Assembly: GCA_034226945.1 (NCBI GenBank)
Contig: CP120456.1
Coordinates: 1 to 64,000 of the forward strand
Length of the DNA stretch: 64,000 nucleotides
Direction of reading: 5' to 3'
DNA from: Picochlorum sp. SENEW3
Lineage: Eukaryota
Shown: positions 4,857 through 57,804 of the stretch, one piece after another
How positions within the stretch are numbered: the first letter of the stretch is position 1
How the letters are laid out: each line of letters starts with the position of its first letter
The notes under the pieces: model-generated
Seen by the model: the letters and a program-made list of their open reading frames with translations, nothing else
Database searches by the model: none
Told to the model about the DNA's origin: nothing
Translations under genes and position numbers: made by a program

Positions 4857-6617
4857 TTGTGGCCGTGCGTCCCTGCTATGGCCCGTGTCTCGGACTCCGA
4901 TTTGACGAGTCGCCAGGTGGTGTACACCCGGTGGCGACTGCGTGGTTTGTGTGTAGGTTCTCGCCGTGGGGCTGCGGAGGTGGTGCACAAGGTGTTTGAT
5001 CGTGGCACTGGAGCTGGGCGTGTTCGTGTGAAGCGTGTGTGGCTGGGTCGTCGTCGTCGGGGGAGGGTTGGGTCGGGTTTTTTGCCTGTCATGTTTGAAA
5101 TCGAGCCGCCAGGGGTGTCCGCACGCCGGATGCAGGACCTGGTGGCCGTGTTTGTGGGGGACCACCGCCGGGCGGGCAGCTATGCTGGCGCTCGGTGGAC
5201 GGTGCGTCCTGGTGTGTATTGCCGTGGGGGTGGGGAGGAGCGCGACTCGCCGGTGCAAGCCAGGCATCGTGCTCGGGTGATGAGCTGGAACTGCGCGGGG
5301 TGGGGCAAAGGGGCACAGGCGGGCAAGCGCAAGGCGTTTGTGCGCCTGCTGCGGCGCGAGCGTCCGGCGGTGGTGGGGCTGCAGGAGACCCACGTGGGGC
5401 TGACAGACCGCCAGGTCGAGGTCCCGGGGTACTACACGTTGAGTGCCCCGGTTCAGGATGACCTGGCGGGGTGTTGGGGGATGTGCATGCTGGTGGCACG
5501 GGGGCTGCACGTCCGAGCGTTGGACACTGGGGATGCCAACGTCCAGGCCGTGCTGGCAGGGGAAGGGGTGGTGGTGGATGCCCAGTGCGTCCTGGTGAAT
5601 GTGTACATACCAACAAGGGGGGCAGGGGGGAAAGAAACGCGACGAACCCAGGTGGTCAAGAGGCTGGGCAGCCTGGTGCAGCAGTGGTACGCCAGGTATG
5701 GAGACGCCCTGGCCGTGGTGGTCATGGGAGACTTCAACTGCCCCGACAGGGGCGACCTGGACGAGCTGCTCACCAGAGGGGAAGTTATGCTGCACCCTGG
5801 CCCGCTTCACATGACAGTAGTGGCCAACCAACACCCCACGAGGGTGTTGAAGTGCAAGGATGGTGTCAAGGAGACCACCCTGGACCACTTCATGGTGAAC
5901 ACGCCTGCTCGGAAACTGTTCAACAAACACGCCACCAGCCTACTGTCCTGCCGCGAGGACCTGCAATCGGATCATGCACCTATTGTCGTTGGCTTCAGGA
6001 GCCCAAAGGCGAAGCAGAGACAGCGAACACGAGAAGAAGGGCCCCCCTCAGCGAGTGGGGAGGAGGCCCTTGTAGAAGGACGACAGGAGGCTGCTGGAGC
6101 AGGAGGCTGGGCTGGAGCTGGAGCTGGAGATGCTGTAGAGTCGACTCACCGTGTCGGAGCGACTCCATTGGTAGACCTGGACCTCGTGGCAGCCAGGGAA
6201 CAGCAGATTGTGCATGACCCAGAGTGGCTCCACGTCGCCGTGGTCATCCATCAGGACAGAGAAGGAGGACAGCTGAGACAGGGACTGGAAGGAGCAGAGG
6301 CGCCGCCCAGCATCGCCAATCCACCCGAAGTATTTTATAGAACGGCGATGCGGGTGCTTCGCCGCCATGGGTGCATCAAAGACCCCAGAGACAGGAGGGA
6401 CCGCAGCAGACTGCAGGACAAGGACGAGCTTGGACAGAGGAAGAGGAAGAGGAAGCGCATGTCGTTGGCAGTGGCCAACGCGGTGCAAAAACGCATTAGA
6501 ATACGGAAACGAATAGAGAAAAAGAGTTCGGCCAGAACAGGGGCGCCTAGTACAGAGGAAGATGCCCAGGCACTGAGGGAGGCCACCACCAAGGCCAAAG
6601 ACCAAGGCCAAAGCTAG
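4857..6617 (+). CDS. LINE ORF segment 1: apurinic/apyrimidinic-like endonuclease
   Basis: Motifs MSWNCAG, GLQETH, VNVYIP, MGDFN, LDHFMV, SDHAPI. The segment ends because of a 13-bp tandem duplication at 6588-6613. Confidence 0.9.
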   Translation: MWPCVPAMARVSDSDLTSRQVVYTRWRLRGLCVGSRRGAAEVVHKVFDRGTGAGRVRVKRVWLGRRRRGRVGSGFLPVMFEIEPPGVSARRMQDLVAVFVGDHRRAGSYAGARWTVRPGVYCRGGGEERDSPVQARHRARVMSWNCAGWGKGAQAGKRKAFVRLLRRERPAVVGLQETHVGLTDRQVEVPGYYTLSAPVQDDLAGCWGMCMLVARGLHVRALDTGDANVQAVLAGEGVVVDAQCVLVNVYIPTRGAGGKETRRTQVVKRLGSLVQQWYARYGDALAVVVMGDFNCPDRGDLDELLTRGEVMLHPGPLHMTVVANQHPTRVLKCKDGVKETTLDHFMVNTPARKLFNKHATSLLSCREDLQSDHAPIVVGFRSPKAKQRQRTREEGPPSASGEEALVEGRQEAAGAGGWAGAGAGDAVESTHRVGATPLVDLDLVAAREQQIVHDPEWLHVAVVIHQDREGGQLRQGLEGAEAPPSIANPPEVFYRTAMRVLRRHGCIKDPRDRRDRSRLQDKDELGQRKRKRKRMSLAVANAVQKRIRIRKRIEKKSSARTGAPSTEEDAQALREATTKAKDQGQS

Positions 6618-6708
6618 GCAGAGAGGCTGGACAGAGGCCACACGCAAGGCCACTGAGGCAGCCAAGAGGGGCGACTGGGAACAAGTATGGAAATACATCA
6701 AGAAGACG

Positions 6709-8721
6709 GTGAAGAAACAGGTGGGGAGCCCCTTGGGTGTGCCGCTGCGAGACCCCGCCACAGGGCAGCTGGTGTATGACGAGGACAGCAAGGCGGGAGT
6801 CCTCATGGCCCACTTCGCACACCTGGCGGTGGACCCGCACCCACAGAGCAGAGAGTGGTGGGAGCAGCAACACCCGCTGCCCGAGGAAGGAGAATGCAAG
6901 GAGCTGGATGTGGAGGTGAGCTGGCCAGAGGTGTCGACCGCCTTGGCAAGGGCAACCACCTCCAAGGCACCTGGGCTGGATGGCCTGCCAAACGAAGTGC
7001 TGAAAATGTGCAAGGGGCCGCCCACGGCGATGGAGCCGCCCAATCCGATGGCAGCAGCACTTCTGGAGCAGTGCCAAGCGATGCTGGATGGACAGGTGTC
7101 TCAGGAACTCAACACCAGTGTGTTGGTAGCTCTGGACAAGCCGGGGAAAGATGCCCAGGAGGTGGGCAACAAGAGAGGCATCAGCCTCATGCCGACGCTG
7201 CTCAAACTGGCTACCAAAATAGCAGCGAATAGAATACAGAACCATACCCCCGAGGTGGCCAAGGAGCAGGCGGGCTTCAGGCCAGGAGAGGAATGTCTGC
7301 AAAACGTGGCAGCCCTCCACGAGGTGTGCCACTTGAGAAGGCACCACTGGGGGCAGCCCACCTACGTGGCCTTCATGGACCTCAAAAAAGCGTTCGATAC
7401 AGTACCTCATGCCGCAATGCTACACGTGTTACATGCCAAAGGGGTGAGGGGAAAAATATACAGGTTCATAGACAAGGTGTACCAGTCGGGCTCATTCGTG
7501 CTCCAACACCACCAGCAAGGTACCACCACCGCACCAGCACCCATCCAGCGAGGGGTCCGACAAGGGGACACATTGTCACCACTATTGTTTAGTCTGTTCA
7601 TTGACCACGCCATGGACGGCCTGGAGGGGGTGGAGGTGCCAGACAGACAAGGAAGGACGGTGGGCCACATGCGAGGGCTGTTGGTGGCCGACGACGCCGT
7701 GCTCCTGGCCCCACACGCTGAGGGCATCCAGGCAGCTCTTGCCAAATTTCAGACTTGGTGTGACACCTATCACATGCAAGTAGGCCACGACAAATGTGGC
7801 CTCATGGTGCCCCTCCCAGAGTTCCAACACCTGCAGGCCCAAGCCAAGGAAGCGCCAGATCAATTCATGTGTCAAGGCCAGCCCATCCCTGTAGTAGATC
7901 AGTACACATACCTGGGGCTCCAAATTGATCTTAATCTTAGCACAGACACATTGAGAAAAGGTAGACTAGAAGCTGGAGAGCAAGCGCTGCGGGCTTTGGC
8001 GCCAATGCTTGCTAATGCCCGAGTCCCACTGGCTCTCAAGGCGGTGTGCATCAAAGGACTGTTGCTGCCCACCCTCACATATGGGGCCGAAATTTGGGGC
8101 GCTGGGCCCTGCCAGGACCACACAGATATTCACACAATTTATAGCGATGCCATGCAACTAGCCATAGTGGGCACCAGAAAAGCCAAAGCCACCTACAGAA
8201 GAGACTCGGCCACAATTGAGCTGGGACTGCCATCGATCCAAGCCGCCATCACCACCGCGCCTACCAGAGCTATTAGGAAATGGACACAGTCAAAAACATG
8301 GATACAGGACCTTCTCCTCCACCACGACCATAGACAAATACTAGAGGCAGCTGTGACAGCGCTGCACACACCACCACCACATGCCACAGACACCTCGCCA
8401 GAGGCCCAGTACCAGCAATGGATCTGGGAACTGACTCAGCCAGCAATTACCACCACCTGCAACACAACATGGATCCACAAAGCCACCAAAGGAGCACTAC
8501 AGCAACTTGCCAACACCCACAGGACAATTGCCCATCACCACCACCAACCATTCTATGACCTGCAACAACCCACCACCACCACCATACCCACCACCAAGGA
8601 GCTGACGAAACACATAAAAAGACAGAGAGGATTAGAAGGGTCATTACGACCTGCCAAAGAGCAAAATCCACAGTGGCAGTGCCATATCAATACTGCCTCG
8701 CGACAGCAACCGCACTATTGA
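6709..8721 (+). CDS. LINE ORF segment 2: reverse transcriptase
   Basis: KAPGLDG, RGISL, QAGFRPG, DLKKAFDTVPH, GVRQGDTLSPLLF, VADD, YTYLG, LTYGAEIWG. Confidence 0.92.
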   Translation: MKKQVGSPLGVPLRDPATGQLVYDEDSKAGVLMAHFAHLAVDPHPQSREWWEQQHPLPEEGECKELDVEVSWPEVSTALARATTSKAPGLDGLPNEVLKMCKGPPTAMEPPNPMAAALLEQCQAMLDGQVSQELNTSVLVALDKPGKDAQEVGNKRGISLMPTLLKLATKIAANRIQNHTPEVAKEQAGFRPGEECLQNVAALHEVCHLRRHHWGQPTYVAFMDLKKAFDTVPHAAMLHVLHAKGVRGKIYRFIDKVYQSGSFVLQHHQQGTTTAPAPIQRGVRQGDTLSPLLFSLFIDHAMDGLEGVEVPDRQGRTVGHMRGLLVADDAVLLAPHAEGIQAALAKFQTWCDTYHMQVGHDKCGLMVPLPEFQHLQAQAKEAPDQFMCQGQPIPVVDQYTYLGLQIDLNLSTDTLRKGRLEAGEQALRALAPMLANARVPLALKAVCIKGLLLPTLTYGAEIWGAGPCQDHTDIHTIYSDAMQLAIVGTRKAKATYRRDSATIELGLPSIQAAITTAPTRAIRKWTQSKTWIQDLLLHHDHRQILEAAVTALHTPPPHATDTSPEAQYQQWIWELTQPAITTTCNTTWIHKATKGALQQLANTHRTIAHHHHQPFYDLQQPTTTTIPTTKELTKHIKRQRGLEGSLRPAKEQNPQWQCHINTASRQQPHY

Positions 8722-10581: not shown

Positions 10582-12175
10582 CCCTACCCTGTGCATACCG
10601 TCGTTCCTTGGCAGTGAGGGTAATGAGGGTATATAACACCATAGTCACCCTACTTCCCACCACACAAACAAAAAATAAACACAATTTTCAAATAAAAATA
10701 ATAATAAACTACCCAAAAATAAGAAAATATCCAAAAAATCAAAAATAAAGCCAAGAAAAAACACCACCAACAAGACCAAAATACCCTAACCAAAAAAACA
10801 CACCAACAAAAAAAACATCCAAAAACACAACCAAAAGAACGAGAATATACAATACAATATCAAGAAGAAGAATAAGTAGTATAATAAACACCTACTATAT
10901 ATACAACGACAACGACAACAACAAAAGACACGGCATACCACAAGCTCTGCTACTACTACTGCTCCTCCTCCTCCTCCTACTACTACAACAAGAGAAGACA
11001 ACAACAACAGCAACCAACACAAAAGAAGGAAGCAAAACCAAAATCAAAAGATAAAAATCTCATAATAATCATAATGACACAATAACAATCTATACTATGC
11101 TAGGCTATGCATGAATGAAAAGAATCTCTGTCTTCTTCTTCACAACAACAACAGCAACAACAGAAGGACACAATATTAAGTAAGTAAGTAAGTAAGAAGA
11201 ATACCAGTAATAATAATAATAATAAACACCCATCATTAAAAAAAAGCGTCGCACACCCAGTGCAAAACAAACAGTGGTCTGCTGCCACATGTCTGAAGAA
11301 GAGGGAGCAGCTCGGAACAGGAAGAATGGCGATCTTCCCATCACCCCTTGACTTGACTGGGACCACCACCAAAAACATACCAACCAAACCAAGTAAGGGT
11401 GTAGAAAACAGCCACCCTACATAACAACAACAATAAGAATACAATAAATCAACAACCATCTAGCATTCACACCACCACCACTACTACTACTACTGCTGCT
11501 GCTGCTACAGAACATGAGACAACACACCAACAAAGAAGCAAAGCAATCAAAAGGAGAAAGTAGATATCTCATAATAGTAGTAGTAGTAATAATGATAATA
11601 ACATGCACAACAATCGACACGAGCAACGATAACAACCAATAATAACAGAACAGAACAAAGCACACAAGTCTCATGCACACAAGAAGAACAACAAGGAGCT
11701 ACCCTACACAGACAACATATGAGATAGAGAGAGGTATAATAGTAGTAGTATATATAAAAAGAATAAATAGAAGACATGAAACAAGAATAAAATGAAAAGA
11801 AATCGTCGTCTTCACAACAACAACAACAAGCAAGCTGAGATAAGCACCAGAGGAACATTGCAGCAGCTGCAATGCTGGAGCATCTCTCAATATCATCATC
11901 ATGCGAGGCACGCGTACTTACTTACTTACATAGACTTCATGAGTTGCAATTAGGATAGTAATAGTAGTATATAACTGCGCAGCGTCTTTGAATGGGGAAG
12001 ATCTCGTCGTGTTTTTACAGCAAAGAAAGACTGCTCATCAGCTCTCCTCCTGACTGCTGTGTGCTCCACATATCCAGGCGCTCCCATCAGAAGGGGTCTT
12101 CCATCGGACAAAGGAAACCAACATCGAAAAGAAACTACCACCACCGGTCAAAACTCCATTGTGATGGGAGATGAA
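10582..12175. repeat. A/C-rich duplicated block, copy B, with CAA/CTA microsatellites
   Basis: Begins CCCTACCCTGTGCATACCGTCG directly after the LINE poly(A). Homologous to 1822-2870 with an internal expansion. Confidence 0.85.
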
Positions 12176-15276: not shown

Positions 15277-16560
15277 TTATTCATCATCCAAAGGAATGAT
15301 CAAATCATCATCATCTGAATTCATAGTGGTGTCGTCGGAAGCATGAACCTTGTCGTTTTGAGGAAATTCCTCTGCATTTTCTGCTGTAGAATCATCCCAT
15401 TCTCTTTCCAATTGATGGTTCATTGTATCAATATTCATTCGGGAATGATAATGCTTCACTCGATCCACATTGACGACTGGGTGGAAAGCATAGCCTTGTT
15501 GCTTGGAATTCAATTCAACAGCATTGTTGGGAATCACCCTCACAACCGTGAATGGTCCAATCCAGCGAGGTTGCAGCTTTTTGAATTGCTTTCCTTCCCA
15601 CTTCAATTTGTGATTGGAGAGCAGAACTTGATCTCCTTCCTTGTAGACAGCCACTCTTCTGGATTTGTTGGCATAATGAGCTTGTCTCTGTTGTGCCACC
15701 CTCATGTTGTGGGTTGCAGCCTGATGGCAACGAAATAACACATCCAAATATTCAGAGCTCGCTGTAGTCTTCTCAGTGTCTTCCAGACCTAAAGCAATGG
15801 TATGGGGCTTTCTGGGATGACGACCATAATTCAAATAAAATGGAGTGAACTTGGTCGATTGCTGATACGAATCATTGTAAGCAAACTCCAGAGGCCATAA
15901 CAATTCATCCCACGTATTCGTGTATTCATCACAGTAGCATCGAATCATATCTTCCAGCACTCGATTCACTCTTTCAGTCTGCCCATCCGTCTGTGGATGA
16001 TAGGCAGTGGATTGCAACTTCTGGCAACCCAGCTGGCTCATGAGCTCGATCCAGAACTGACTCGTAAACTTTGGATCTCTGTCTGACACAATGCTCGACG
16101 GCATGCCATGCAAACGATACACATACTGCAGAAAGATGGAAGCAGTACCTTTGGCATCCAACGACGCAGGTGCTGGTGCAACGGTGAGACATTTGGTGAA
16201 CTTGTCCACCATCACCACAATCTGAGAATTCTTTCTGGCAGTCAACGGCAAATCTGTGATGAAATCAATTGTAACCTGGTCCCAAGGCTTGGCAGGAACA
16301 GGCAATGGCTGTAACAATCCAGCAGCAGGCTGATTCAGGCTCTTGACACTCTGGCAGACAGGACACTCTTTGACATACTTGGCCACATCATCTTGCATTC
16401 GAGGCCAAAAGTAGTACCTGGCCAGATCCTTGCACATCTTGTCCCTTCCAGGATGACCACTGAACATGCTGTCATGATGCAGCATCAACAACTCAGTCTT
16501 GAACGAAGCATTGTCTGGAATGATCAACCGTTTTGGGTGCTGAGGTGATGGGCCATACAC
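15277..16560 (-). CDS. Gypsy integrase (frameshifted from pol)
   Basis: HHCC zinc motif (HHDSMFSGHPG..CPVC), DDE core (IDFIT, SDRD, QTERVNR), GPF motif WIGPF. Confidence 0.95.
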   Translation of the reverse strand: MYGPSPQHPKRLIIPDNASFKTELLMLHHDSMFSGHPGRDKMCKDLARYYFWPRMQDDVAKYVKECPVCQSVKSLNQPAAGLLQPLPVPAKPWDQVTIDFITDLPLTARKNSQIVVMVDKFTKCLTVAPAPASLDAKGTASIFLQYVYRLHGMPSSIVSDRDPKFTSQFWIELMSQLGCQKLQSTAYHPQTDGQTERVNRVLEDMIRCYCDEYTNTWDELLWPLEFAYNDSYQQSTKFTPFYLNYGRHPRKPHTIALGLEDTEKTTASSEYLDVLFRCHQAATHNMRVAQQRQAHYANKSRRVAVYKEGDQVLLSNHKLKWEGKQFKKLQPRWIGPFTVVRVIPNNAVELNSKQQGYAFHPVVNVDRVKHYHSRMNIDTMNHQLEREWDDSTAENAEEFPQNDKVHASDDTTMNSDDDDLIIPLDDE

Positions 16561-19500
16561 CCAAAACGTGGATAATACAGCAATCCATTGTGTTCAGTCA
16601 CAGCATCCATGTTGACGTGATTCAGAATGGAGGGTACTGGAACTCGTTGCTTATAGCACTTTCGAATCGACCCAATAAACTTGTCTGTCTTGTACAACTG
16701 CCTCAATCTGTTGAGCAGAGCCTCATCCAGCTGCAAGCCCACGGCCACAGAATTCAATACCACTTCTGGAGGTCTGCTGAGCAAATCAGCAATACAATTC
16801 TTCTTTCCCTCAATGTACTGAATATCCAGATTAAAATCAGCCAGCTTGTTCAGCCATCTAATTTGCACACCATTCAGATCCTTTTGAGTGGGCAAATGAG
16901 TCAAGGGCCTGTGATCAGTAAAAACCACATTCTTTGGCTGCCCCAGCAAGTAACACCTGAAACGCCACACTGTGAGTTTCATAGCAAGAAATTCCTTGTC
17001 ATACACAGAATATCTGAGCTCGGCGCCTTCCAGCTTCTTCGAATAATATCCAAGAGGATGATACATGCCATCCACCAGCTGTGTGAGAACTCCTCCCACG
17101 GCATACTCCGAAGCATCTGTGAATACATGAAATGGCTTGGACATATCCACCAATCTCAAGACTGGATACGTCGTCAAAGCGTTCCTGAGAATTTCGTACG
17201 CTTGCTGAGCCTCCTGGGTCCATACAAAAGGCACCTCCTGCTTTGTCAATGATGTCAAAGGCAGGGCAATCTTGGCAAAATCTTTAATGAACCTTCTGTA
17301 AAATCCCACAGCTCCCAAAAAGGACCTAATCTGCCTCTTATTGGCAGGTCTTGGAAACGTAGCTATCTTTTCCACGAGTCTCTGGTCAGGCTTGATGCCC
17401 TCGGATGTCACCACAAATCCTAGAAACTTGGTGCTCTGTCGAAAGAACTCGCACTTCTTCATATTCAAATATACTTTGTTTTTCTTCAGACACTTCAAAA
17501 CAGTCCGAACATGCTCCTTATGCTTTTTCTTGGTCTTGCTAAAGATGAGAATATCATCCAGAAACACCACCACAAAGGCATCCATGTGGGGCTTGAGCAG
17601 CTTATTCATCCAGGCTTGAAACGTTGCCGGAGCATTGGTCAACCCAAATGGCATCACTCGAAACTGATATGAGCCATACCTCGTTCTGAAAGCTGTTTTG
17701 TGTCTGTCTTTCCTTGCTACAGGAATCTGGTGATACCCCGAATTGAGATCCAGTGCTGTGAAGTACTTGGCTCCAGACAGTTGATCCAACAACTCGTCAA
17801 TGTTGGGCAAGGGATAACTGTCCTTGACTGTCTGCTGATTGAGCATCCTGTAATCTACGCACATGCGCAGATCACCATTCTTCTTCTTGACGAACAACAC
17901 ATTGGAACCAAAAGGCGACGTGGATGGTTCAATAATCCTCTTGTCCAGGAACTGCTGCAACTGCTTGCGAAGCTCTCCCAGCAACGTAGGAGACATCCTC
18001 CTCAACGGTTGCACCTTGGCTTTTGTTCCAGGGACCAAGTCAATGTGATGTTCCACAGCATATGGTCTACCTTCAGAAGCATCTGGAGGCAATTGCCCCT
18101 CCAGCATAATGTCACCATACGAATCTTTCAATTCCTGTAGAAACTTTTTCTGGTCTTCCTGCTCTGCTCCCATTTCCAGAGCATGAAGACCCTTTTCATC
18201 TGTCGCACGACCAAGTGGCTGTTCACGTCGAGTGCTCACGTGAATCATATACATTTTCTCCACGCCCGAGACAGATTGGCATGTCTTTTTCATAGCAGAA
18301 GCAGTCAGCAGCAGGTCATCTTCCTGGGCATGCAGAACTCTTTGGGTCGGCTTTCTCAACAATACAGACATGGATTGATAGCACAAACTAGCTCCTTGTG
18401 CCTTCAACCACGGCTGGCCTAAATACACATCATACTTGCTGTTCAAGGGTGCCACTCGGAGGGCCACATGGGTCACACACTCCTGAGCTCCATGTTGCAC
18501 AATCCTCAAAGAACAATTTAGGACTTGATCAATACTCCTTCCAGATGACCCGTCTGGAAGCTTAAGCACTAGCGATCGACCTGTCGTCACATTCAATCCA
18601 CTAGTCCTGGTGAGGAAATTCTCAGCCACGAAGTTTTCCTCAGCGCCCGAATCCATTAATATTCGCACTCTATATCCTTTGATGTAGCCGTCGAAAGAGA
18701 ATATCAACCCTTTATCACCTTTCTTCGACTCCTGGAGATGGTATAAATCTCGATCCTTGGAAACACAGTCCCCATCATGAACACCAGCTTTGGTCAAAGC
18801 GGCCGTACTGTGCGATTCCTCAACAATCTCATTTTTGTTACTATTGGACTCCAGGGGTGGTCCAGGCGTTTCTTGAATACAATCCCCTGTTCCTAATCGA
18901 TCTCCAGATCCTTTTGTTGTGAATTCCTCCTCGCCTGGGACAGCGACCTCACAGTGTTGCAGCGATGTGGACTGGCCACCCTTCGGTGCCCAACAAGGGC
19001 AGCGACGGCCCAAGGCCAATTGATCCTTTCCACATCGCGAGCACAACTTCCCATATCTGTCAGCAGTCTTGACACAGAAATGAGTGGGATCCCATGCTGC
19101 ACCACAACATTTGCACTGTCCCTTGACAAACTTCTTTGGCTTCTTCCTGTTCTTCGTCTGCGTCTCCTGGCCACTCACATGATGAATGACCACTTCCGTG
19201 GACGACGACGACGGCGACAAATGAGAAATCCAATGCGACAAGTAAGCAATCAGTCTGTCCAATCTACTTCTAGACTGCACCTGTGGAGTGGTCTCCACCT
19301 CTTTGGCCAGCTGCTCTCGTTCATATTCCAACGCCTTGGCTTTGAATGCTGGCGTCAACGAGTTGATAAAGGTCTTGAACACGTGAATTTCAGAGTCTTT
19401 ACTACCCATCATTTCCAGCTGGTCCAGCAATTGACGAAATGCCCCGAGATGACGATCGAAATCATCCGCCGACTTCATGGTCAGCGAATTAAACTTGTCA

Positions 19501-20033
19501 TACAAGGCCTCCACTGTCCTGACTCCAGCGTATTTACGAAAAACCTCCTGGGTGAGAGCATTCCATGATTCGAACGAGCCGTTCTCTCGTACAGCCGATT
19601 CATACCAAAGACGGGCACTATCCCGAAACAACAGCTTGACCTCCTTCAACCAGCGAGCCTCATCGTCTTGAAAACGATCCGACATATATATCTTGGCGCT
19701 GGTGGTCCATCGAATCACGCCGTCTAGGTCATTATGCTTCTCACCATAGAAGACGGGAGCCTCCAGCTTGGGCAGCTTGTACCCCAGCGACGCACTCGTC
19801 TCTTGATCGTCCGACATCTGCCTGGGGCCTGTCTGCGATTGCATCGACAACTGTTTCACCATGGCTTTCAATTGTGCGATCTCCTCATACAAATTGGCGA
19901 CCTCCGTGGTCCCCTGGCTCACCGCGCCCAGGTCATCAGAGTCGAAAGCATCATTCTCCCGCAGGCGTATCTCGATGTCCGGTGGACTCCCATGTCCAGC
20001 CACTGGGCTCTCATTGCCCGGATTACTCGACAT
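16524..20033 (-). CDS. Gypsy gag-protease-RT-RNase H polyprotein
   Basis: Cys-rich gag knuckles, protease LMDSGA, RT LRMCVDYR / MPFGLTNAPATFQ / FLDDIL, RNase H TDASEY..DKEFLA..TDHRPL..ADLLSR. Confidence 0.97.
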   Translation of the reverse strand: MSSNPGNESPVAGHGSPPDIEIRLRENDAFDSDDLGAVSQGTTEVANLYEEIAQLKAMVKQLSMQSQTGPRQMSDDQETSASLGYKLPKLEAPVFYGEKHNDLDGVIRWTTSAKIYMSDRFQDDEARWLKEVKLLFRDSARLWYESAVRENGSFESWNALTQEVFRKYAGVRTVEALYDKFNSLTMKSADDFDRHLGAFRQLLDQLEMMGSKDSEIHVFKTFINSLTPAFKAKALEYEREQLAKEVETTPQVQSRSRLDRLIAYLSHWISHLSPSSSSTEVVIHHVSGQETQTKNRKKPKKFVKGQCKCCGAAWDPTHFCVKTADRYGKLCSRCGKDQLALGRRCPCWAPKGGQSTSLQHCEVAVPGEEEFTTKGSGDRLGTGDCIQETPGPPLESNSNKNEIVEESHSTAALTKAGVHDGDCVSKDRDLYHLQESKKGDKGLIFSFDGYIKGYRVRILMDSGAEENFVAENFLTRTSGLNVTTGRSLVLKLPDGSSGRSIDQVLNCSLRIVQHGAQECVTHVALRVAPLNSKYDVYLGQPWLKAQGASLCYQSMSVLLRKPTQRVLHAQEDDLLLTASAMKKTCQSVSGVEKMYMIHVSTRREQPLGRATDEKGLHALEMGAEQEDQKKFLQELKDSYGDIMLEGQLPPDASEGRPYAVEHHIDLVPGTKAKVQPLRRMSPTLLGELRKQLQQFLDKRIIEPSTSPFGSNVLFVKKKNGDLRMCVDYRMLNQQTVKDSYPLPNIDELLDQLSGAKYFTALDLNSGYHQIPVARKDRHKTAFRTRYGSYQFRVMPFGLTNAPATFQAWMNKLLKPHMDAFVVVFLDDILIFSKTKKKHKEHVRTVLKCLKKNKVYLNMKKCEFFRQSTKFLGFVVTSEGIKPDQRLVEKIATFPRPANKRQIRSFLGAVGFYRRFIKDFAKIALPLTSLTKQEVPFVWTQEAQQAYEILRNALTTYPVLRLVDMSKPFHVFTDASEYAVGGVLTQLVDGMYHPLGYYSKKLEGAELRYSVYDKEFLAMKLTVWRFRCYLLGQPKNVVFTDHRPLTHLPTQKDLNGVQIRWLNKLADFNLDIQYIEGKKNCIADLLSRPPEVVLNSVAVGLQLDEALLNRLRQLYKTDKFIGSIRKCYKQRVPVPSILNHVNMDAVTEHNGLLYYPRFGCMAHHLSTQNG

Positions 20034-20517
20034 CCTTCTGTAGATAAGGACAACGATTCAGACATGCTTATCAAGGTTGACTTGCCGAACAACTAATCAA
20101 TGTACCTGTGAATAGAGAGAAACGATATCTATATATTTCACTGCTCTTCTGGCATGTGAAATGTATCACCCACAACCACTGTTCGTATTGTTCGAACTAG
20201 TGCATGTATGATCAGCTGTTTCGGCGGAATAGAATGTTTTCCGAATGACCTACCGCAAGAACGAGGCTCACTCTTCTGCATCAGATGGCGGCGGAGCGCG
20301 TGCCACCCACGCGTTTGCATGGTCCAAGATCATGCACGTGGCCCAGCACGTGCCAGACTGATGCACGTGTCCCAAACGCGTTTGTGAGACGCGCCTGGCA
20401 CGCGTCCGACGCCGAGTCGAGACGTTCCCAGTTTCTCAAACGGTTGCGCAGAAACATTCTAAACCAGCCAAAACAAGCACACAATACTTAAAAGTATTTT
20501 CTCAGAGCTGAAACCAA

Positions 20518-20813: not shown

Positions 20814-22759
20814 GTGTTGGCACGAATGCCAACAACTAATGCCAAGCTTGCTTGTTGAGAGGAGTATCTGTGGTCGGCTCGCAAAATTGTGGACACGTAA
20901 ACCATGTAACAGGTTAATAATGGTGTTTATTACCTCTGGGAGTAGGAGTACTTGGGTACTTGATGGGAGCGGAGTAGAGAGTCTGTGTGTTGGTCTCACT
21001 GACAGTGTCCGCTCCTGGCATCCATTCGACGAGAGACATCACGCATACTACTTCTCGTCGTCTCTCCGTCCGTAAACAGACACAATAAAAACAGGCGACC
21101 ACCACACCGGCACACCGGCCATGGGTCACGATTTTTTATTGTGTTCAATTACAGCAGGAGAAAAAAAAACACTTGGGTACTTGGGAGTGTGTATCGATCG
21201 CTCTAGTGTTCAATTACATTGAATATGGGATTATTATACTTGCAAAAACGTCCTGCCGACACCGCGACGAATGAAAGTCCCCATTAAAAACACAGGTGGT
21301 CGTCGTCAATTCCGTTCGCGTCACATTGGTTGGGACGAGGAGGAAGGGCCTGCAGAGCTGTCACCCTTGGGCAGGAAGGGCCATTCATATGATTCATAAT
21401 AAGTCCATCATACGACCCACGTATGGCCACATTCACAGAGAGGGGCCCGTAGCCGTTCCACGGGAATGCCTTGGCGATCACAGTGGACAGAGCCACGACG
21501 TCCAGGACCTCTCTTTCTCCTGATGGGTTTCTGCATGAATCGTTGATTGACATTGCAATACTTTTGAATCAAATCAATGAGGCGGCAGAAAAACAAAACC
21601 AAGCTCAAGCAGGCGGGTGGCAGTGAGTGTGTTGCGCCAAGAGCACGAATGCCACGCTTGCTTGTTGAGAGGAGTATCTGTGGTCGGCTCGATTTCTGGA
21701 AGTACACCATGTTATAGGTTCATAGTAATACGGGTAGAAGGAAGCGTGTTTGTTGCCCAGCATTACAGGGAAAGGAGACTTTGATTGGGTATTGAGAGCG
21801 GAGGGTAGCCACAGGGTCTCTTTTCTTTGAGAGATGGCCGCTCCTGGCATCGATTCGACCGGAGACATAATTTCAAACGCAAAACGCTCGTCGTGTTTCC
21901 GTCTGTAAAAAGACACAATAAAAAAAGACGACCACGGGCCAAAACTGGACAGTTCGTTGACATTGGCGTCGAATAAGCTACTTTTCGACGCGAACCACGG
22001 AGACGCACGATGGTCCGGTCCATCAAACTACTGGACCGGAAGAAGAAGCCACGTTGGTTGCTCTCTTCGTTCGTAAAAAGAGACAATAAAAAAAGGTGAC
22101 CAGTTAGACTGCCATTATCACGACTGTTATAGAAGGGAGAGACGTGGGTCGACAAAATTTCATTGCGTTCATTTCCGATAACGGGAGTGACGTCTACTGC
22201 ACGGCTTTTTTACACACAGCAAAAAGACGAAAACAGCATTTTTTACAGCAACAAACAGCAAACAGTTCCATCTGAATATCGTTTCTTGATGGGCAGGGTC
22301 ACACAGCAAGACCTCATCGCGGCACTTTTCAACTGATGGTCCGCCAAACTGGAATGCTGCGTCGAATCTCCCCCAATGTCTGTTGCAAAAGCAAGAAATC
22401 TCCACTCTCAGATTCTCGTCGGAGGACGATTCTCTGTCACCATGGAGAATGAGGCCTCTGTTGGCTTTTCCCATTGACTTGTTTTGCTCTTTCCTGACTG
22501 CAGGGTGCACCACTGGAGGGGCTTCTTCCGCCCAAGCGATCCTGAAATGCCATTGCATTCTCTAGACTGTGATCCGATCGCTGTCAAAAAGTTCCTCACC
22601 ACTTCAAATCGCCATGCCACGCTTCGTTGGCAACAATCTTATCCTCAAGATGGAAGATTCGAAATCGTTCCAGGAGGAACAAGAATTTGGTGGAGGGCAC
22701 ATGGGCGGGGGTACCATATATGCTAATATTAGGGGAAATTCGATAGCACACAGTACAGT

Positions 22760-44553: not shown

Positions 44554-45033
44554 TCAGTTTTTTATGTCAACGAGCTCCACGTCAAAAACGAGGACACTGT
44601 TTGGTGGAATGACGGGTGGGAAACCCTGGGCACCGTATGCATACTCGGGTTGACACGTAATCACAGCCTTTTCGCCCAAACTCATCGTGAGGACACCTTC
44701 ATCCCAGCCCCTGATGACCATGCCTTTGCCAACTCGGAACTCCAGCGGCTGGCCCCTGTCGTGGCTGCTGTCGAACTTCCTCCCGTCCGTGAACTTGCCC
44801 GTGTAATGGACGTGCACCAAATCTCCGACCTTGGGCTTTGGCCCATTCGTTTCGTGCGTGATCTCTTTGGTGAATCCCTGCGCAGCACAAGAAACTCTGA
44901 AACCTGTCCTGAACGGACGAGCTTGCGTGCCTGCCGACCTCGACAGGAAAGGATTTGCACGCTGAACAATCTTCATCACACCCACCGTCATGATATTTAG
45001 TAGTACTAATAGTAGTATGACTGCGAGGAGCAA
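44554..45033 (-). CDS. FKBP-type peptidyl-prolyl isomerase with N-terminal targeting extension
   Basis: [48 protein letters not shown]. Likely start is an ATG near 44991. Confidence 0.93.
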
Positions 45034-45251
45034 TCGCCGCCATCCTTGCCTGTGGTGGGTGGTCGGACGTGCCGTTGCCGCGAGGTTGTGGTACTGCGAA
45101 TATAATTCAATTTTCGCAGTACCAACCGCCTGTTGCGGTTGAGAATCGATCGCTCAAGTCCAACCGGACTCTATCGAGCCATCAAACCCGATATTTGAAT
45201 TCTTTCAATTTATGTGATCGTATTGACGACGACGAAGGCCCCAAGTAAGTA

Positions 45252-51403: not shown

Positions 51404-52975
51404 ATGGCTGCTGCACGTCCTCTTGTGGCCGTGCAAGGATTAGACGGCACTGCCGTGGGACAGGTACGCCGACTGTGGAATTGAGGCGACGGCCAGCACC
51501 ACCTCGCGACATCCCTGCAATATATGCCATGCAAATGATCAAACAATTAATCTATATTATTTTTATACACAGGTCGAGCTTCCTGCCGTGTTCTCCGCCC
51601 CCATCCGTTCTGACATTGTCCAGACCGTCCACACCAACATGAACAAGAACAAGCGTCAGGCATACGCAGTTTCATCAAAGGCTGGTCATCAGACCGCAGC
51701 TGAATCTTGGGGTACTGGAAGGGCTGTTTCTCGTATTCCACGTGTTCCAGGAGGAGGAACTCACAGAGCAGGTGCGTTCTGTCTCGAAGGGGTCGGCCAG
51801 GATGGAAGTGGAGGCTGTCTCCACCTATCGCTGCATCCAGTGGCCCAGTATATTGAAATGTTGAAATGGTTGGGGATTTTGAATATTAGGATGGGGATTG
51901 TCTGATCATCAGATGTGGGTCACCTGCGGTCGGCTGCGCCGACTCGGGAGTCTGCAATGGGAACAGCTTTCATGTGGGTTGAAACGGGTCAATCCTGACG
52001 AATGAAGTTGACATGTTTTGATTTGTGATGACTGCAGGACAAGGAGCTTTCGGAAACATGTGCCGAGGAGGACACATGTATGCTCCAACCAAGACTTGGC
52101 GAAGGTGGCACAGAAAGATCAACGTGAACCAGAAGCGCTACGCTGTTGTGTCGGCTTTGGCCGCTTCTGCTATTCCAGCCCTGGTGATGGCTCGTGGGCA
52201 CAGGGTGGAGAACATCCCAGAGATTCCATTGGTGGTTGACGATGCTGTGGAGAGCATCACCAAGACCAAGGCTGCCATTCAGCTTTTGGCTGCCATTGGA
52301 GCCAACGACGATGTGGAGAAAGCACGTGCCTCCAAGAACCTCCGCCGTGGTAAGGGTAAGATGCGTAACCGTAGATATGTGGCCCGCCGCGGACCACTTG
52401 TGATCTCAGGAGGGTCTCCAGAGGTTGCTCGCTCCTTCCGCAACATCCCAGGAGTGGAGGTGGCAAATGTGGACAGCCTCAGCTTGCTCCAGCTCGCCCC
52501 AGGAGGTCATTTGGGTCGATTCATTATCTGGACCAAGAGTGCATTTGCTAGGCTGGACGAAATCTTCGGCACCAGTGAGACAGAGTCTTCTGTGAAGAAG
52601 GGATACAAAATCCCACGCAACATCATGACCAACCCGGATTTGGCCCGTCTGATTAACAGTGACGAGGTTCAGAGCGTAGTAGCAGCTCCAAAGGAGGGAG
52701 GACGCAAGGCTCCATTGAAGAAGAACCCACTGAGAAATCTCGGTGCCCTTCTGAAGTTGAACCCAGCTGCCAAGGCCCAGCGCCGAGCAAACTTGTTGGC
52801 TTCTGAAGAGTCTAGAGCAAAGAAGGCCAGAGAAGCCAAGCTTCAGGCTGCTAGAGCTAACCGTAATGCTGTGAAGAAGGTTTCCAAGGAATTCTACAGC
52901 AAGATGGTGACAGATGCGGACTACATTGGAGAGGATTACGATGTCTTCTCTAGATGGTTGGGTACAACCCAGTAG
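51404..52975 (+). CDS. RPL4: 60S ribosomal protein L4 (uL4); exons 51404-51463, 51573-51771, 52038-52975
   Basis: [44 protein letters not shown]. The two GT-AG introns keep the frame. Confidence 0.97.
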
Positions 52976-53068
52976 ATGGTTTTGATAGCACGAGTAAAAG
53001 TACAAAAACATAGTCAACTATTTTTATCAATCTAAGAAAATCAACATGATGTTTCTTATGTAATGGTA

Positions 53069-53204
53069 CAGTAAAAATTATAAATTTCATTAGGCCCAAT
53101 GGAAACTTCCACCGCAGGCCTCCTGTATCTTTGAGTGATGCACTGCCTGATGCTCATGTAAAAAAACCACAAACACGTGTCAGACAGCGACTGACACACC
53201 GAAT
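53069..53204 (-). ncRNA. Candidate Fanzor omega-RNA scaffold region
   Basis: Lies directly 3' of the Fanzor stop. Hairpins at 53177-53197 (7-bp perfect stem) and 53092-53121 (~12-bp bulged stem). The call rests on position and structure only. Confidence 0.4.
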
Positions 53205-54278
53205 TCATTCATCACAGCCTCTCTTCCTTTTGAATGGACTGAGCCGTTCTCCCTCGCCATTATCTTTCACTGAATAACAGTAATGGAGAAACAAATTCAA
53301 AATATTAATAGAGGCATTGATATCTCTATCCCAAACTGTTCGTATGCAATCGTTTTGTAAGCAACGTTTCATCCTGAACTGTTTTCGTAATTGGGACATT
53401 ATACCATGGCAGCAACTGCAGAGTTTGGAGGTTCTGAATTCATTCGTGACCACCACTCTACAATTCTCTGATACCTTTTTAAACAATTTTGTTGACATCA
53501 TTGGAGCGGTTCCTCTCAAAGTGCCATTTTTATCACCGTCACCATATGCAATTATCACCTTCTTCTGTTCTTCTTTATTCTTCGTGCCAGCAATTTTTGC
53601 AACAACATCTTCCATGGCTTTCTGGCGCTTACAGAACTTCCTCATCCTTTGTTTTTGGAACCACTTTGACCCATGAAAAAAGGCATTATTTATCTGAGGC
53701 CATAACTCAACTTGCTTTCTATATGCAGCAAGTGTTCTTTCAATATCTACTGTCTTGGTGGATGACAAACTTCTCCATGATGGGCAGAAAGCCGTCATTC
53801 TCTTGTTCATCTTTGCCGTATACTGTTTTTGCCCTGATAAATACCTCCATTCACCTCCTCCAATGCTGCCACTGTCGTACCTTTCTTCCTTCATTGTTTT
53901 TTCCCCTTCATCTCCTTTCCATTTTTTATGTTTAGTTTGTTTCAAAGGATCATGGTACACCCAGGTCGCAGCACTCTTTTTTCCAGGGTCCAACCCAACA
54001 ACTTTGCATTTTGCATAGTAGATTCCATCAACTTTTTCTAGTTGCATCAGATCTTTGATATCTTCATGGATCAGTGTTTGGTCATTTCTCTTGTTTATAC
54101 CAGCTAACAGATTCATCCTTTTCCGTTGTAAGCCGTCAATCAATGGATAGATCCGGGAGAACAGAACAAGGAAATCAACAGGCAATGTGACCTCTCCAAT
54201 AAGATCCTTCGGTCTTGGAAAGAGAGCAGTTGCATCATCACCCATCCCTTTTTTGCCTCGCATCTGACACACCTCCAA
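53205..54278 (-). CDS. Fanzor (eukaryotic TnpB-family RuvC endonuclease), Fanzor1-like, N-terminally short
   Basis: RuvC-I VVGLDPG, IIAYGDG, rearranged RuvC-II NEFRTSKL next to zinc ribbon CSCC..CLQNDC, RuvC-III WDRDINASINI. AT-richer than its neighbours. First ATG at 54263. Confidence 0.88.
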   Translation of the reverse strand: MEVCQMRGKKGMGDDATALFPRPKDLIGEVTLPVDFLVLFSRIYPLIDGLQRKRMNLLAGINKRNDQTLIHEDIKDLMQLEKVDGIYYAKCKVVGLDPGKKSAATWVYHDPLKQTKHKKWKGDEGEKTMKEERYDSGSIGGGEWRYLSGQKQYTAKMNKRMTAFCPSWRSLSSTKTVDIERTLAAYRKQVELWPQINNAFFHGSKWFQKQRMRKFCKRQKAMEDVVAKIAGTKNKEEQKKVIIAYGDGDKNGTLRGTAPMMSTKLFKKVSENCRVVVTNEFRTSKLCSCCHGIMSQLRKQFRMKRCLQNDCIRTVWDRDINASINILNLFLHYCYSVKDNGEGERLSPFKRKRGCDE

Positions 54279-54311
54279 GCACCATTTTCCATACGTAATG
54301 GTAATTTAACT

Positions 54312-56050
54312 TTAATTCGAAGTCTCCTTCGAGCTCGATACATGTATTTGTTTTGCACTAGTATCCTCTTCTGCTTTCTCGGGTTCTTCCAATTCTTGCT
54401 TCTCCTCGTGCTCCTCCATGTCTGCTGGAACTTCGTCTGAGAACAGGATTCTTGCTGCGACTTTCAGATCACCACCTGCTCGAACCGCAGCTGCAAAAGC
54501 AGGCAACGACTCTCGAGCAACGACTCGAAGAGTTTTCCAGTTGTACATGATGTCCTTGGAAACGCTAAACATTTCATCCTGCTCGGGATCGTTCATCTCA
54601 TCGATAACAGGGCCCATAAGCTGCCGCAAGTTTGTGAATCCTCCTCTGTCGTCAGCTGCCAACACTGCACACATATTCAAGATAATGCATTGAAAAATTT
54701 CCATCAGGATACAACAATACCGACTCCTGCGTGTAGCAACGTACTTGTGAGGTTGTCCTCGGTTTGATTCCATAGCCTTGTGAGTTCAGGGACCCCAAGA
54801 TCTACCCCAAACACTGCATCAGGCGATTTCTTCATCTTTTTTGGCTCGGGATATAAACGCACATCTTTCAATTGCTCTACATCGTATTTTTGAGAAGTTT
54901 GGAAAGCCTCTGCTGGACAACCAGCCTGCTTCCATAGATTCCATGCCATCTCTCCATCCAAGACCTTTCGAATCGCATCTGCAAATGTGACTCCATTCTC
55001 TGGAGTTTGTTTCAACTGATGATAGATCTTTTGCTTCATATGGATCATGCTTCCAAGAACTCTCTCAGTCGGCTTTTTGCTCACCCAATCTTTCAGCAAT
55101 GGATCCTCCATCCACCCTATCAAAATCAGGCTCTGCACCAGAATCGTTCTCCGAAACGTGGCATCCCTGATTTGAAGGGGCAGAAGACGAGCGCTGCTGA
55201 GGTACTTGACAGATGAACCATCACCACTTTTGCAGAGATTGTCTTGAATACTTGTGTTCGATCCTGCGGCTTCCGTAACTGTCACACTGGTGGAATTGAA
55301 TTTTTTGAGAACCAACTTGAGAGACTCCGAGATGGAATCCCAAGCCCCAGGGGACAACGCTAATCGGGGATCAGAGAACCATTTCTGCAGTCCCCAAAAT
55401 GTTTTGTAAAATTCTATATCTATAGGCCGTCCTTCGGCATCCAAACTGCCCTCCTTGACCTCCTCAAGGGGTGTCATGTTGTCTATGTGGAAGCTGCCAT
55501 ACATGTTCACCCCAGACCTTTCAGTCAATGGCAAAAATTTTGCTAGGAATATCAGAACCCTGCCACACAACTCTGCGTCCTGACTTTTTGACAATCTCTT
55601 CAGCAGCACATTGCAGGTCCTTAGCAGGGTATACTGAGATTTCTGCCGCACCCCTGGCGTGGTGAACATGTCCATTCGGGAGTCCAAGTAGTCAAATATA
55701 TCAATACTGTTCATTGTCGTAGTTACCTCCATCAAAACCTCCAAGCACATCGCTGGAGCGGATAAATCAATCAGAGAGGAGTGGTGGAGAGCCATATTCA
55801 TCACTGAATCGATGAAGAAACTGACCATCCCCACCCCATTCTCCTCCAGTTTCATGACTGAGCACCCCTCTTCCCTGGCCATCCGGGCAAGCTGTAACAC
55901 TGTTGCCTGTAGAGCGTGGGATAAGAGAAATGCATCGTCACCTGTAAGTGCATCCACCGTCTTACGGCCCCTGGTGTCACACAAAACTCTAATGAACTCT
56001 TCTCCGCACTCCCCAGACGAGTCACTGGACTCGCTTGCATGCGTCTTCAA
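54312..56050 (-). CDS. THOC1: THO complex subunit 1 (THOC1/HPR1); intron 54744-54665; 5' end uncertain
   Basis: LLRTCNVLLKRLSK..CGRVLIFLAKFLPLTERSGVN, FYKTFWGLQKWF, KYLSS..LQIRDATFRR, LGVPELTRLW, YNWKTLR. Confidence 0.92.
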
Positions 56051-56477
56051 GCCGACTAAGATCTTATCCTACGAGTACATATCAATTTATGAGATCATGT
56101 GGATCCCCATATTGTGGATTGACACCAAAAAGCGCACCCTCAACCCCACAACCGATGTCTCATAGCTCATACTGTCACCATGCACCGGTTAATCACTTCC
56201 CATCTCGATATTTGTAATATTCGTATCCCCTTTGATCGTCATTCAAATCGGAGTAAGCTCAAACGCGAGCACGGGTTCCTTAATACGTACTTTTAAATCG
56301 CCAAGTCGATCCACCAGTCCTCGGGTGATCGATCCTTTCAACGACTCTCGTCCATGGTGCGCGTTCACCTGTATCCCCCATGGCGTGGGTCAACCGACGC
56401 CTGAGAGTCCCTCCGCAAGACCACCTTCTGCTATTGATAATTTGCAAGAATATACCTATAAAAACAATTCCTGCAAC

Positions 56478-57804
56478 ATGGGGGCTGGTTGGAGGCGATT
56501 CTCGGAGCAGGTACGTTTGCCTAGAGACCAACGGCACAGCCAGATTCTCGCTGTTGACCGACGAGTTCGACGGATCACCGCCGATTAGAATCAGAGCGCT
56601 GGTCACCTATCATTACTTAGTGCAATTCTGTCCGGTTGGAGTGGGTTTCCGGGACTTTGAGTGGTGTCGTGGGGTGGAGCGTTGACGGTTGGTTGGATGG
56701 GCGTGACGCCTCGGGAACGAGTACTGATTGGGGCTTGTGAACGATGTGCAGGCTCGTCAAAAATGGGGTATTGGAGATAGAGAATTTCAGGTGACTCCAA
56801 ATACGAGGAACGAGCTCATGCTGAAGGAAGCGACAGAGTTCTCTGTGCACCTCAAGAGGTGCGAGAAGGACATTAGGGCTCTGAAAGTGGCCACCGAGGG
56901 GCTTTTGGTGACATCCAAGGTGGTGCTCACATCCTCTCTTCCACGAGTCTTTGAGGAGACTGGTGGGGGCAAAGTGGTGCCCGTGCCCACTGGCCCAGTC
57001 GGCTCATCTGGAGTTGCTGCGATTGGTGGGGGAGACTTTTCACCAGAAGAATTGGCCAGAATTTCGAAAGAGACTGGGTCAAAAATCGAAACTGAAGTGT
57101 TAGCTCCAATGGAGAGGTGGATGAATGCGTTCTCATTGGTGCAGAACCGCATGTCCAAGCTCGAGGCCTTGAGGTTAGAAGTTGACTCAAGGAGAAGGAC
57201 TGTTGCAAAGTTGGGGAAAAAGGTCGATGTCCAGCGGGCCCAGCTTCCACAAACGAGAGCAAGGGGTGAATATGACATGGAAAACACCATCAAGGTGCTC
57301 CAGCACAAGGAAGCAAAGTTGTCAGCATGCAGACAGTCCTACAAGGAACACGAGGCCCTCGTGTACCATCAGCTGACAAATCTCATCCGAGACACAGTAT
57401 GGCTGAAATCGTACCTCTCTGCGGTTCTTCGAGTGGAATCAGAAGCCTTCCAGGTGGCCAATGTCGCTCTTGGATCCATGAAGGCGGCGTTGCCATCCTC
57501 TGCCTCACCAAGTGAAGCAGATCCGATCCAGATGAATGGAATGAATGCCATGCATGATTCTTTGAGCGATGATGGCATACCTGCTGCAAGAAGCGATGTC
57601 ATGTCCCGTCATAACCACCAGAAATCTATTGAAAATGGGCTGAAAGGCTCTCCAGCAAGGAAAGCAAAAGATTCCATGTATACCATTGATGCTTCCAGCG
57701 AACAGAGGGGAGGTGTGGCTGGAGGCATCCCTGCCCAGCGAGAGCCATATGCAGCATACGGGGCTTCTGAGGAGTATACCAGACCTCCCGTGTCTGCTTG
57801 GTAA
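56478..57804 (+). CDS. BAR-domain-like coiled-coil protein; exons 56478-56510, 56752-57804
   Basis: Amphipathic N-terminus MGAGWRRFSEQARQKWG, IETEVLAPMERW, LRLEVDSRRR helices. Phase-0 GTACGT..TGCAG intron. Confidence 0.6.

Follow-up and report, generated by a model that had tools for sequence, protein, structure and literature searches.

Between the convergent THOC1 and RPL4 genes of Picochlorum sp. SENEW3 lies a fragment of a Fanzor1-type gene, followed by 136 nt of structured non-coding DNA which a sequence-only reading of the locus had proposed to encode an omega-RNA. The stretch that was analysed (the window) comprises positions 1 to 64,000 of contig CP120456.1 (assembly GCA_034226945.1), and all coordinates of the Fanzor fragment and its 3' tail refer to the minus-strand reading (Table 1). 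THOC1, which has a Pfam efThoc1 match, ends with a TAA stop codon on the minus strand (54314-54312) and RPL4 with a TAG stop codon on the plus strand (52973-52975); when the fragment and one copy of its flanking repeat are removed, 101 bp are left between these two stops, and the insertion sits in this original spacer. As the insertion begins 8 nt past the THOC1 stop and on the same strand, THOC1 transcripts must run into it, and the THOC1 3' untranslated region and poly(A) site are now inside or beyond the Fanzor fragment. The Fanzor open reading frame (ORF) and THOC1 are also in the same frame, kept apart by TAA-AGT-TAA only (54304-54314).

Table 1. Features of the Fanzor1 fragment, its 3' tail and its flanks in the window (NLS, nuclear localisation signal; SL1, first stem-loop; MFE, minimum free energy)
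Feature	Position	Strand	Basis or remark
Whole inserted fragment, 5'-truncated Fanzor1 copy with intact 3' non-coding end, 1223 bp	53069..54291	minus	Start of family homology and flanking direct repeats
Left 12-bp direct repeat TACCATTACGTA, putative target-site duplication	54292..54303	minus	Starts 8 nt past the THOC1 stop
ORF, Fanzor1 NUC lobe (RuvC and TNB zinc finger), without REC/WED lobe and NLS	53208..54290	minus	Pfam, profile, Foldseek
Stop codon TGA of the Fanzor ORF	53205..53207	minus	
7-nt leader ATTCGGT	53204-53198	minus	Between stop and SL1 candidate
SL1 candidate: GTGTCAG 53197-53191, 7-nt loop 53190-53184, CTGACAC 53183-53177	53177..53197	minus	Perfect 7-bp stem
Competing long hairpin, 10 + 8 pairs, T7 run in loop	53141..53189	minus	Free-energy model, pair probabilities about 0.7-0.998
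Terminal bulged stem-loop AGGCC/TGC/GGTGGA/AGTT/TCCATTG/GGCCT	53092..53121	minus	In MFE and centroid of every fold
Unstructured AT-rich 23-nt tail AATGAAATTTATAATTTTTACTG	53069..53091	minus	From last stem to insertion end
Right direct-repeat copy TACCATTACATA; first 12 guide nt if the RNA is an omega-RNA	53057..53068	minus	
Putative 20-nt guide-templating flank	53049..53068	minus	Inferred from element end and published guide positions (PMC10432273)

Judged by its sequence and its predicted fold, the ORF is a real Fanzor1-type TnpB homologue. The open frame spans 54305-53208 (366 codons) and includes a TNB zinc-finger domain that scored above the Pfam cut-off (Cas12f1-like_TNB, PF07282, 2.2e-8). 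Twelve relatives were found among 834 candidates, and a family profile built from ten of these sequences matched GtFz1 of Guillardia theta (1.1e-11), SpuFz1 of Spizellomyces punctatus (5.3e-11) and PpFz1 of Parasitella parasitica (5.7e-8) in the PDB; a single-sequence phmmer search of the PDB gave no Fanzor at E <= 1 and three weak RING2 matches only. An AlphaFold model of the ORF was of moderate quality (mean predicted local distance difference test score, pLDDT, 63.2) and had SpuFz1 as its best Foldseek match (E 1.8e-7), followed by Cas12f, Fanzor2, GtFz1, PpFz1 and TnpB; the template modelling (TM) score to SpuFz1 was 0.43 by query length and 0.28 by target length, which indicates that the ORF model covers about half of a Fanzor. 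The rearranged RuvC triad is present, with D106 (GLDPG), E289 (NEFRTSK) and D328 (DRD) conserved in the alignment together with G255 in AYGDGD, the Gly that occupies the canonical RuvC-II position, the conserved Glu lying some 35 residues further on. This is the arrangement reported for Fanzors, which have a rearranged RuvC-II glutamate with Gly or Pro at the canonical site and a later Glu (PMC10530073). The zinc-finger cysteines C296, C299, C315 and C320 are invariant in the alignment. Four peptides of the family were looked for in eight of the nine supplementary files of PMC10432273 and had no occurrence in those eight.

The ORF is nevertheless much shorter than its relatives. Members of the same 90% clusters are 706, 784, 797, 852 and 856 aa long, and the full-length relatives have a KKRK motif near the N-terminus, an extended helical region and the TDGVSVS strand; in the window ORF neither the REC/WED lobe nor the N-terminal NLS was found. 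Of P0009, which is the N-terminal 557 aa of a relative, only the last 77 residues match the window (residues 481-557 against 54290-54051, with 52 of 80 columns identical), a Leu stands in P0009 where the ORF has its first Met, and the N-terminal parts of the relatives had no match elsewhere in the 64-kb window. The alignments suggest that the window copy starts at about residue 481 of a protein of some 830 aa, and that the ORF represents the C-terminal ~45% of a 706-856-aa protein. The label “Fanzor” that the sequence-only reading had given to the ORF is upheld by Pfam, profile and Foldseek, but it has to be narrowed to a 5'-truncated copy without REC and WED. In Fanzor1 proteins the REC lobe (REC and WED) is reported to clamp the duplex of the target-adjacent motif (TAM) and to position the guide (PMC11423790), and an ORF which is without REC/WED would give a protein that cannot use a guide RNA in cis. 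Searches of the 64-kb window by tblastn and blastn returned the locus itself only, and hence no second copy of it.

Many other members of the clusters (P0015, P0016, P0018, P0021, P0022, P0024 and P0026) are likewise C-terminal pieces; they are 138-503 aa long, all have the normal C-terminus, and in some cases their contigs measure 10-28 kb. The pattern fits 5'-truncated copies being widespread in the family, or it could reflect gene calling or contig ends. The extreme C-terminus, GCDE-stop (53208-53222), is kept in P0002, P0003, P0006, P0007, P0017 and P0021, which are only 39-59% identical, and the 15-30 residues before GCDE vary in length and sequence among those relatives; the constraint on GCDE could be that of a protein motif or of an RNA overlapping the end of the ORF as in GtFz1, given that the G. 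theta RNA is described as overlapping the last 17 codons of the Fanzor gene (PMC10432273).

The ends of the inserted fragment were placed from homology and from the flanking repeats. The left repeat ends 1 nt ahead of the first homologous codon and the right repeat begins directly past the 136-nt structured interval, and the two (TACCATTACGTA and TACCATTACATA) are identical at 11 of 12 positions. When the 32 nt around the left breakpoint were compared with the 229 nt that separate the Fanzor stop from the RPL4 stop, a match of 11 of 12 was reached by 21 of 2000 shuffles and by 4 of 542 real control windows (p ~0.01), and as a mark of the insertion boundary the repeat is suggestive but not overwhelming. 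No inverted repeat linking both fragment ends was seen among the 25 pairs listed of the 35 found. With 366 open codons, no frameshift relative to its relatives and a repeat that differs at 1 of 12 positions, the copy appears to be young, and its 3' end should therefore still mirror that of the parent element. The left repeat is directly preceded by TTAAAT, of which AAAT forms the last four bases. The left flank immediately before the repeat (54304-54311) reads AGTTAAAT, and its TTAAA resembles, one base out of register, the TTAAN listed as the GtFz1 TAM in Supplementary Table 3 of PMC10432273.

The hairpin, T7 run and bulged terminal stem that had been described for the tail are base-exact and lie where they had been placed. 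The first of these, the SL1 candidate, starts 8 nt past the stop and can be extended by two G-U pairs to 53199-53175, the T7 run (53166-53160) lies in a G/T-rich stretch, and the terminal stem can be extended to 53088-53125. Folded as RNA, the 136-nt interval reached a minimum free energy of -41.4 kcal/mol against a shuffle mean of -31.9 (z -2.83; 1 of 200 dinucleotide shuffles folded equally well). Taken by itself, the region of the terminal stem gave z -3.01 (0 of 200), and the first hairpin z -2.18 (6 of 200). Among 5110 windows of 136 nt, taken from both strands of the 64 kb, 1.2% matched or surpassed the GC-corrected energy of the interval. In a series of 27 windows, each of 60 nt, running from 53400 to 52951, only the four which cover 53205-53071 had z <= -2.5, while the other 23, in upstream coding sequence and downstream flank, ranged from -1.12 to +0.90. 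The structure is thus found in 53204-53071 only, after the stop codon and before the end at 53069 that is set by the repeat, and we conclude that RNA structure here is real, moderate in strength and sharply confined to the interval from the stop to 53069. More strongly structured 136-nt windows exist in the 64 kb, the most structured being at about 45000-45210 (both strands), between an FKBP gene and a PP2C gene, and at 21026-21186 (minus strand); both regions have GC-corrected residuals of -24 kcal/mol, stronger than that of the Fanzor tail.

The position of the first hairpin gives the tail its likeness to known guide RNAs. In the omega-RNAs of GtFz1, SpuFz1 and PpFz1 the first stem-loop is reported to be exactly 7 bp long and bound by RuvC and TNB while the rest varies, so that this 7-bp SL1 is the one feature described as conserved across all three solved Fanzor1 RNAs (PMC11423790). 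By-eye parsing of the RNAs in Supplementary Table 3 of PMC10432273 (Spizellomyces, Parasitella, Guillardia and the Dishui Lake virus) likewise gave an SL1 of 7 bp with a 6-7-nt loop, 5-7 nt from the 5' end. In the Picochlorum tail a perfect 7-bp stem with a 7-nt loop stands at this site; stems of this kind (7 bp, loop of 6-7 nt) occur 16 times in the 64 kb, and 0.01 would be expected within 40 nt of a given stop. When SL1 is enforced, the 136 nt fold into four stem-loops. Reported omega-RNA lengths are 150 nt for GtFz1, 90 for SpuFz1 and 75 for PpFz1 (PMC11423790), and for SpuFz1 the RNA is placed in the stretch that runs from the stop to the right inverted repeat, its guide of 14-15 nt being read out of the flanking DNA (PMC10432273). 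A hairpin also follows the most similar Fanzor1 from a scan of bacterial and archaeal genome contigs, which returned 16 loci: the best of these, L001, is 24% identical to the window ORF, the others being bacterial TnpBs that match over ~48 residues, and its hairpin starts 10 nt past the stop (z -2.78, 3 of 200 shuffles) and is modelled with 10 bp and a 3-nt loop. The L001 locus (1-2700) is contig RFPP01000063.1, binned with a Flavobacteriaceae metagenome-assembled genome, and encodes an IS630/Tc1-type DDE_3 transposase ORF and then a 564-aa eukaryote-style Fanzor1 (TDGKSVS, GLDPG, DEFRTSKLC, DRDIN). The contig is probably DNA of a eukaryote or a virus that was wrongly binned with a bacterium.

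On this evidence we give even chances to the reading that the 136-nt tail is the omega-RNA-encoding right end of a Fanzor1 element. Since it sits on a dead, 5'-truncated copy, it would most likely be a relic or an orphan guide module rather than part of a working system, and as the omega-RNA is an already known kind of element, the Picochlorum tail would be a plausible annotation and not a surprise.

Several results weigh against this reading. In free RNA the SL1 pairing has a probability of 0.002; MFE and ensemble both choose the hairpin at 53189-53141, with which SL1 is mutually exclusive, and forcing SL1 costs 3.6 kcal/mol (-37.8 against -41.4). The earlier proposal of a structured omega-RNA behind the Fanzor gene therefore stands in part: the interval folds better than its shuffles, its location from the stop to the element end fits and its first hairpin matches a 7-bp SL1, but that hairpin is not the chosen fold and the 5' half is paired otherwise by free-energy folding. 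The strand is also poorly marked, as the plus strand beats its shuffles too (z -2.29, 4 of 200), which implies that the raw gap between the strands (-41.4 against -29.7) is largely due to the G+U composition of the minus strand. Strand asymmetry was for this reason rejected as weak evidence for a minus-strand RNA (z -2.83 against -2.29), and with DNA folding parameters the minus strand was not significant (z -1.33, 17 of 200), so that folding alone does not fix the RNA strand. The last stem ends 23 unpaired nt short of the would-be guide, whereas in SpuFz1, again by eye, the last stem abuts the guide; the repeat has a p of only ~0.01, so we infer rather than observe the 3' boundary at 53069; and the adjoining protein, predicted to be without REC/WED, would be unable to use a guide. 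An Rfam search of 52000-56500 at a permissive threshold had no match in the interval, its only match being a weak and unrelated one outside it (psaA RNA, E 0.43), there was no close relative among the 16 loci of the bacterial and archaeal contig collection, and P0008, the one relative predicted to read through the stop position and an uninformative stand-in for a homologous 3' region, is identical at 7 of 14 residues past it, with nothing alignable to it in three frames beyond those 14 residues.

If the tail is an omega-RNA, its guide would be read from the flank, from 53068 downward (TACCATTACATAAGAAAC...). No second site in the window matches the first 18 nt of this flank (53051-53068, TACCATTACATAAGAAAC...) with 3 mismatches or fewer. 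The expectation that a guide would read toward the 3' end of RPL4 agrees with the map, 53068-53049 falling in the spacer at 74-93 nt past the RPL4 stop, outside the RPL4 coding sequence. Because the first 12 nt of such a guide are the duplicated target, a full match would be the uninterrupted spacer of an empty allele, and a match to the empty allele would follow the logic of TnpB-type homing.

The events that would link these features can be set out as follows. A 5'-truncated Fanzor1 insertion (53069-54291) would have landed with a 12-bp target-site duplication (TSD) in the THOC1-RPL4 spacer, bringing with it an intact 3' end which may encode the 136-nt omega-RNA scaffold of the family, made up of the 7-bp SL1, one or two hairpins of lesser strength in the middle, where the T7 run lies, the strong bulged terminal stem and a short tail. 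The RNA would presumably be made, a likely promoter-free source being the THOC1 transcripts that run into the insertion, and it may take the SL1 fold when bound by protein. Any action of it would depend on a full-length paralogue in trans, since the ORF next to it retains the RuvC/TNB lobe, which binds SL1, but is without REC/WED.

The strongest competitor to an omega-RNA is that the structure has no function at all, the tail being what is left of a dead gene fragment's 3' untranslated end as it decays, its hairpins due to chance or left over. The excess over shuffles is moderate (z -2.83, with ~1.2% of windows of the same size equal after GC correction), the copy cannot make a working nuclease and SL1 is thermodynamically disfavoured, all as one would expect of such debris. 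Chance hairpins would not, however, be expected to be limited so sharply to the interval from stop to repeat, nor to include a perfect stem-loop of 7 bp and 7 nt exactly at the expected Fanzor1 SL1 site (against the base rate of 0.01), and decay sits badly with a copy whose open frame and near-identical repeats mark it as young, so that its 3' end should mirror the parent. We regard this explanation as somewhat unlikely, though to be taken seriously.

Decidedly unlikely, in our estimate, is that the hairpins are a mobilisation signal of the element's 3' end, acting as a DNA or RNA stem in Helitron2-type one-ended rolling-circle copying or in the target-primed reverse transcription of a long interspersed nuclear element (LINE), instead of a guide scaffold. 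The anatomy of the copy, 5'-truncated and 3'-intact with a 12-bp repeat, is what speaks for it, being shared with LINE insertions and with the Fanzor1 elements CRe-1, 2 and 3 of Chlamydomonas reinhardtii, which are described as often 5'-truncated and 3'-intact with TSDs of about 7-19 bp and were read by their authors as products of one-ended rolling-circle transposition of the Helitron2 type (PMC3627910). Helitrons bear 3' subterminal hairpins (PMC3627910), Fanzor1c is reported to be associated with LINEs (PMC10530073), and a LINE with apurinic/apyrimidinic endonuclease (APE) and reverse transcriptase (RT) ORFs is present in the window (4854-8718). Yet the details fit poorly: with DNA parameters the interval is unremarkable (z -1.33); Helitron2 hairpins are placed in the last 20-30 bp by PMC3627910 while the stem in Picochlorum lies upstream of a final 23 nt that are unstructured; the left repeat is preceded by AAAT and not by the T-rich target tetranucleotide given for CRe insertions (PMC3627910); and no Rep/helicase ORF was found among the 64 scanned window ORFs of at least 150 aa. 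For a LINE retrocopy, 5' truncation, a TSD and a LINE in the window are in place, but the tail AATGAAATTTATAATTTTTACTG is neither poly(A) nor a simple repeat, and by blastn the locus resembles neither the LINE nor anything else in the 64 kb. Truncation at the 5' side with an intact 3' end and a 12-bp duplication is the signature of 3'-end copying or of LINE-type target-primed reverse transcription, and neither one-ended copying nor LINE retrocopying fits the Picochlorum fragment fully. A role in mobilisation and a role as guide need not exclude each other, since the right end of a TnpB element serves both.

The non-long-terminal-repeat (non-LTR) retrotransposon of the window lies on the plus strand, is GC-rich (about 59%) and has its APE domain as an endonuclease/exonuclease/phosphatase match; A-rich repeats sharing the unit CAACCAAAAAAA flank it at 2047-2083 and 10804-10840. 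The window also holds a Ty3/gypsy-type LTR retrotransposon on the minus strand (15280-20057), with gag, RT, RNase H and integrase in two long ORFs.

A more speculative proposal, which we think improbable, is that this Fanzor1 lineage copies itself 3' end first, the 23 unpaired nt being a parental guide carried along. Copying into a break would start from a transcript or single strand begun or primed at the omega-RNA end and would stop variably, giving 5'-truncated, TSD-flanked copies with the omega-RNA module as the minimal inherited unit; 53091-53069, taken as the parental guide, would then resemble the “fuzzy” right ends of Replitron-1 (PMC10288648), and the truncated copy would be an orphan guide donor that THOC1 read-through expresses and whose target is the empty THOC1-RPL4 spacer.

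It is highly improbable that the stems instead work for the host, as an element that terminates the convergent THOC1 and RPL4 transcripts or forms their 3' ends. The two genes do converge on the interval, THOC1 has its stop 8 nt ahead of the insertion and must now find its 3' end inside or beyond it, and the first hairpin is flagged by a bacterial-style stem-plus-T scan. Yet the stems belong to the inserted fragment and not to the original 101-bp spacer, and the consensus behind that scan is a prokaryotic one that has no known meaning for a eukaryotic nucleus.

Should the omega-RNA prove real, it would extend the Fanzor1 omega-RNA layout, with its 7-bp SL1 and variable further stems, to an uncharacterised lineage of 700-850-aa proteins in a photosynthetic protist, and would offer, for testing, a scaffold and a guide boundary that are defined. 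Of more interest than the RNA is how the copy is built, 5'-truncated, 3'-intact, flanked by a duplication and placed 8 nt behind the stop of a housekeeping gene; algal Fanzor1 elements had been reported with the same anatomy at a time when their RNA-guided activity was not yet known, and a mechanistic explanation for it is still lacking.

Compared with the omega-RNAs of GtFz1, SpuFz1 and PpFz1, the Picochlorum tail has the same place, at the 3' end of a Fanzor1 gene and up to the right end of the element, the same order of a 7-bp first stem-loop near the RNA 5' end and then downstream stem-loops (which are variable among those RNAs), and a guide that would likewise come from the flank. It differs from all three in that no sequence similarity is apparent by eye, in that its last stem and the would-be guide are 23 unpaired nt apart and in that the adjoining gene is truncated. 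Its 136 nt, with a guide of 15-20 nt, would give an RNA of ~150 nt like that of GtFz1, which is also the best PDB sequence match of the family.

As a mobile copy it is like CRe-1, 2 and 3 and like Mucor MCi-2, for which TSDs of 11-12 bp and no terminal inverted repeats are reported (PMC3627910), in being 5'-truncated and 3'-intact, with a TSD in the 7-19-bp range and without terminal inverted repeats. Unlike the CRe insertions it is without a T-rich target tetranucleotide (AAAT) and without a hairpin in its last 20-30 bp, and unlike MCi-2 it does not have the TSD pattern ATAATTNNNN.

Set beside the omega-RNA or right-end RNA (reRNA) of IS200/IS605 TnpB elements, it has a eukaryotic host, a rearranged RuvC-II glutamate and a duplication at the insertion, which IS200/IS605 elements do not make; in both cases the nuclease gene's 3' end together with the element's right end would supply the scaffold and the flank the guide, which would match the uninterrupted target site. 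A comparable situation is that of S. punctatus, in which “partial Fz genes” and 134 “ghost” loci are described as keeping the omega-RNA end without a working Fanzor gene (PMC10432273). The “ghost” Spu-1 loci keep both inverted repeats whereas the Picochlorum copy has its left end missing and is flanked by the 12-bp direct repeat, but, like the partial and “ghost” Spu-1 loci, it would be an omega-RNA right end without a complete gene, the activity of which would need a full-length copy in trans.

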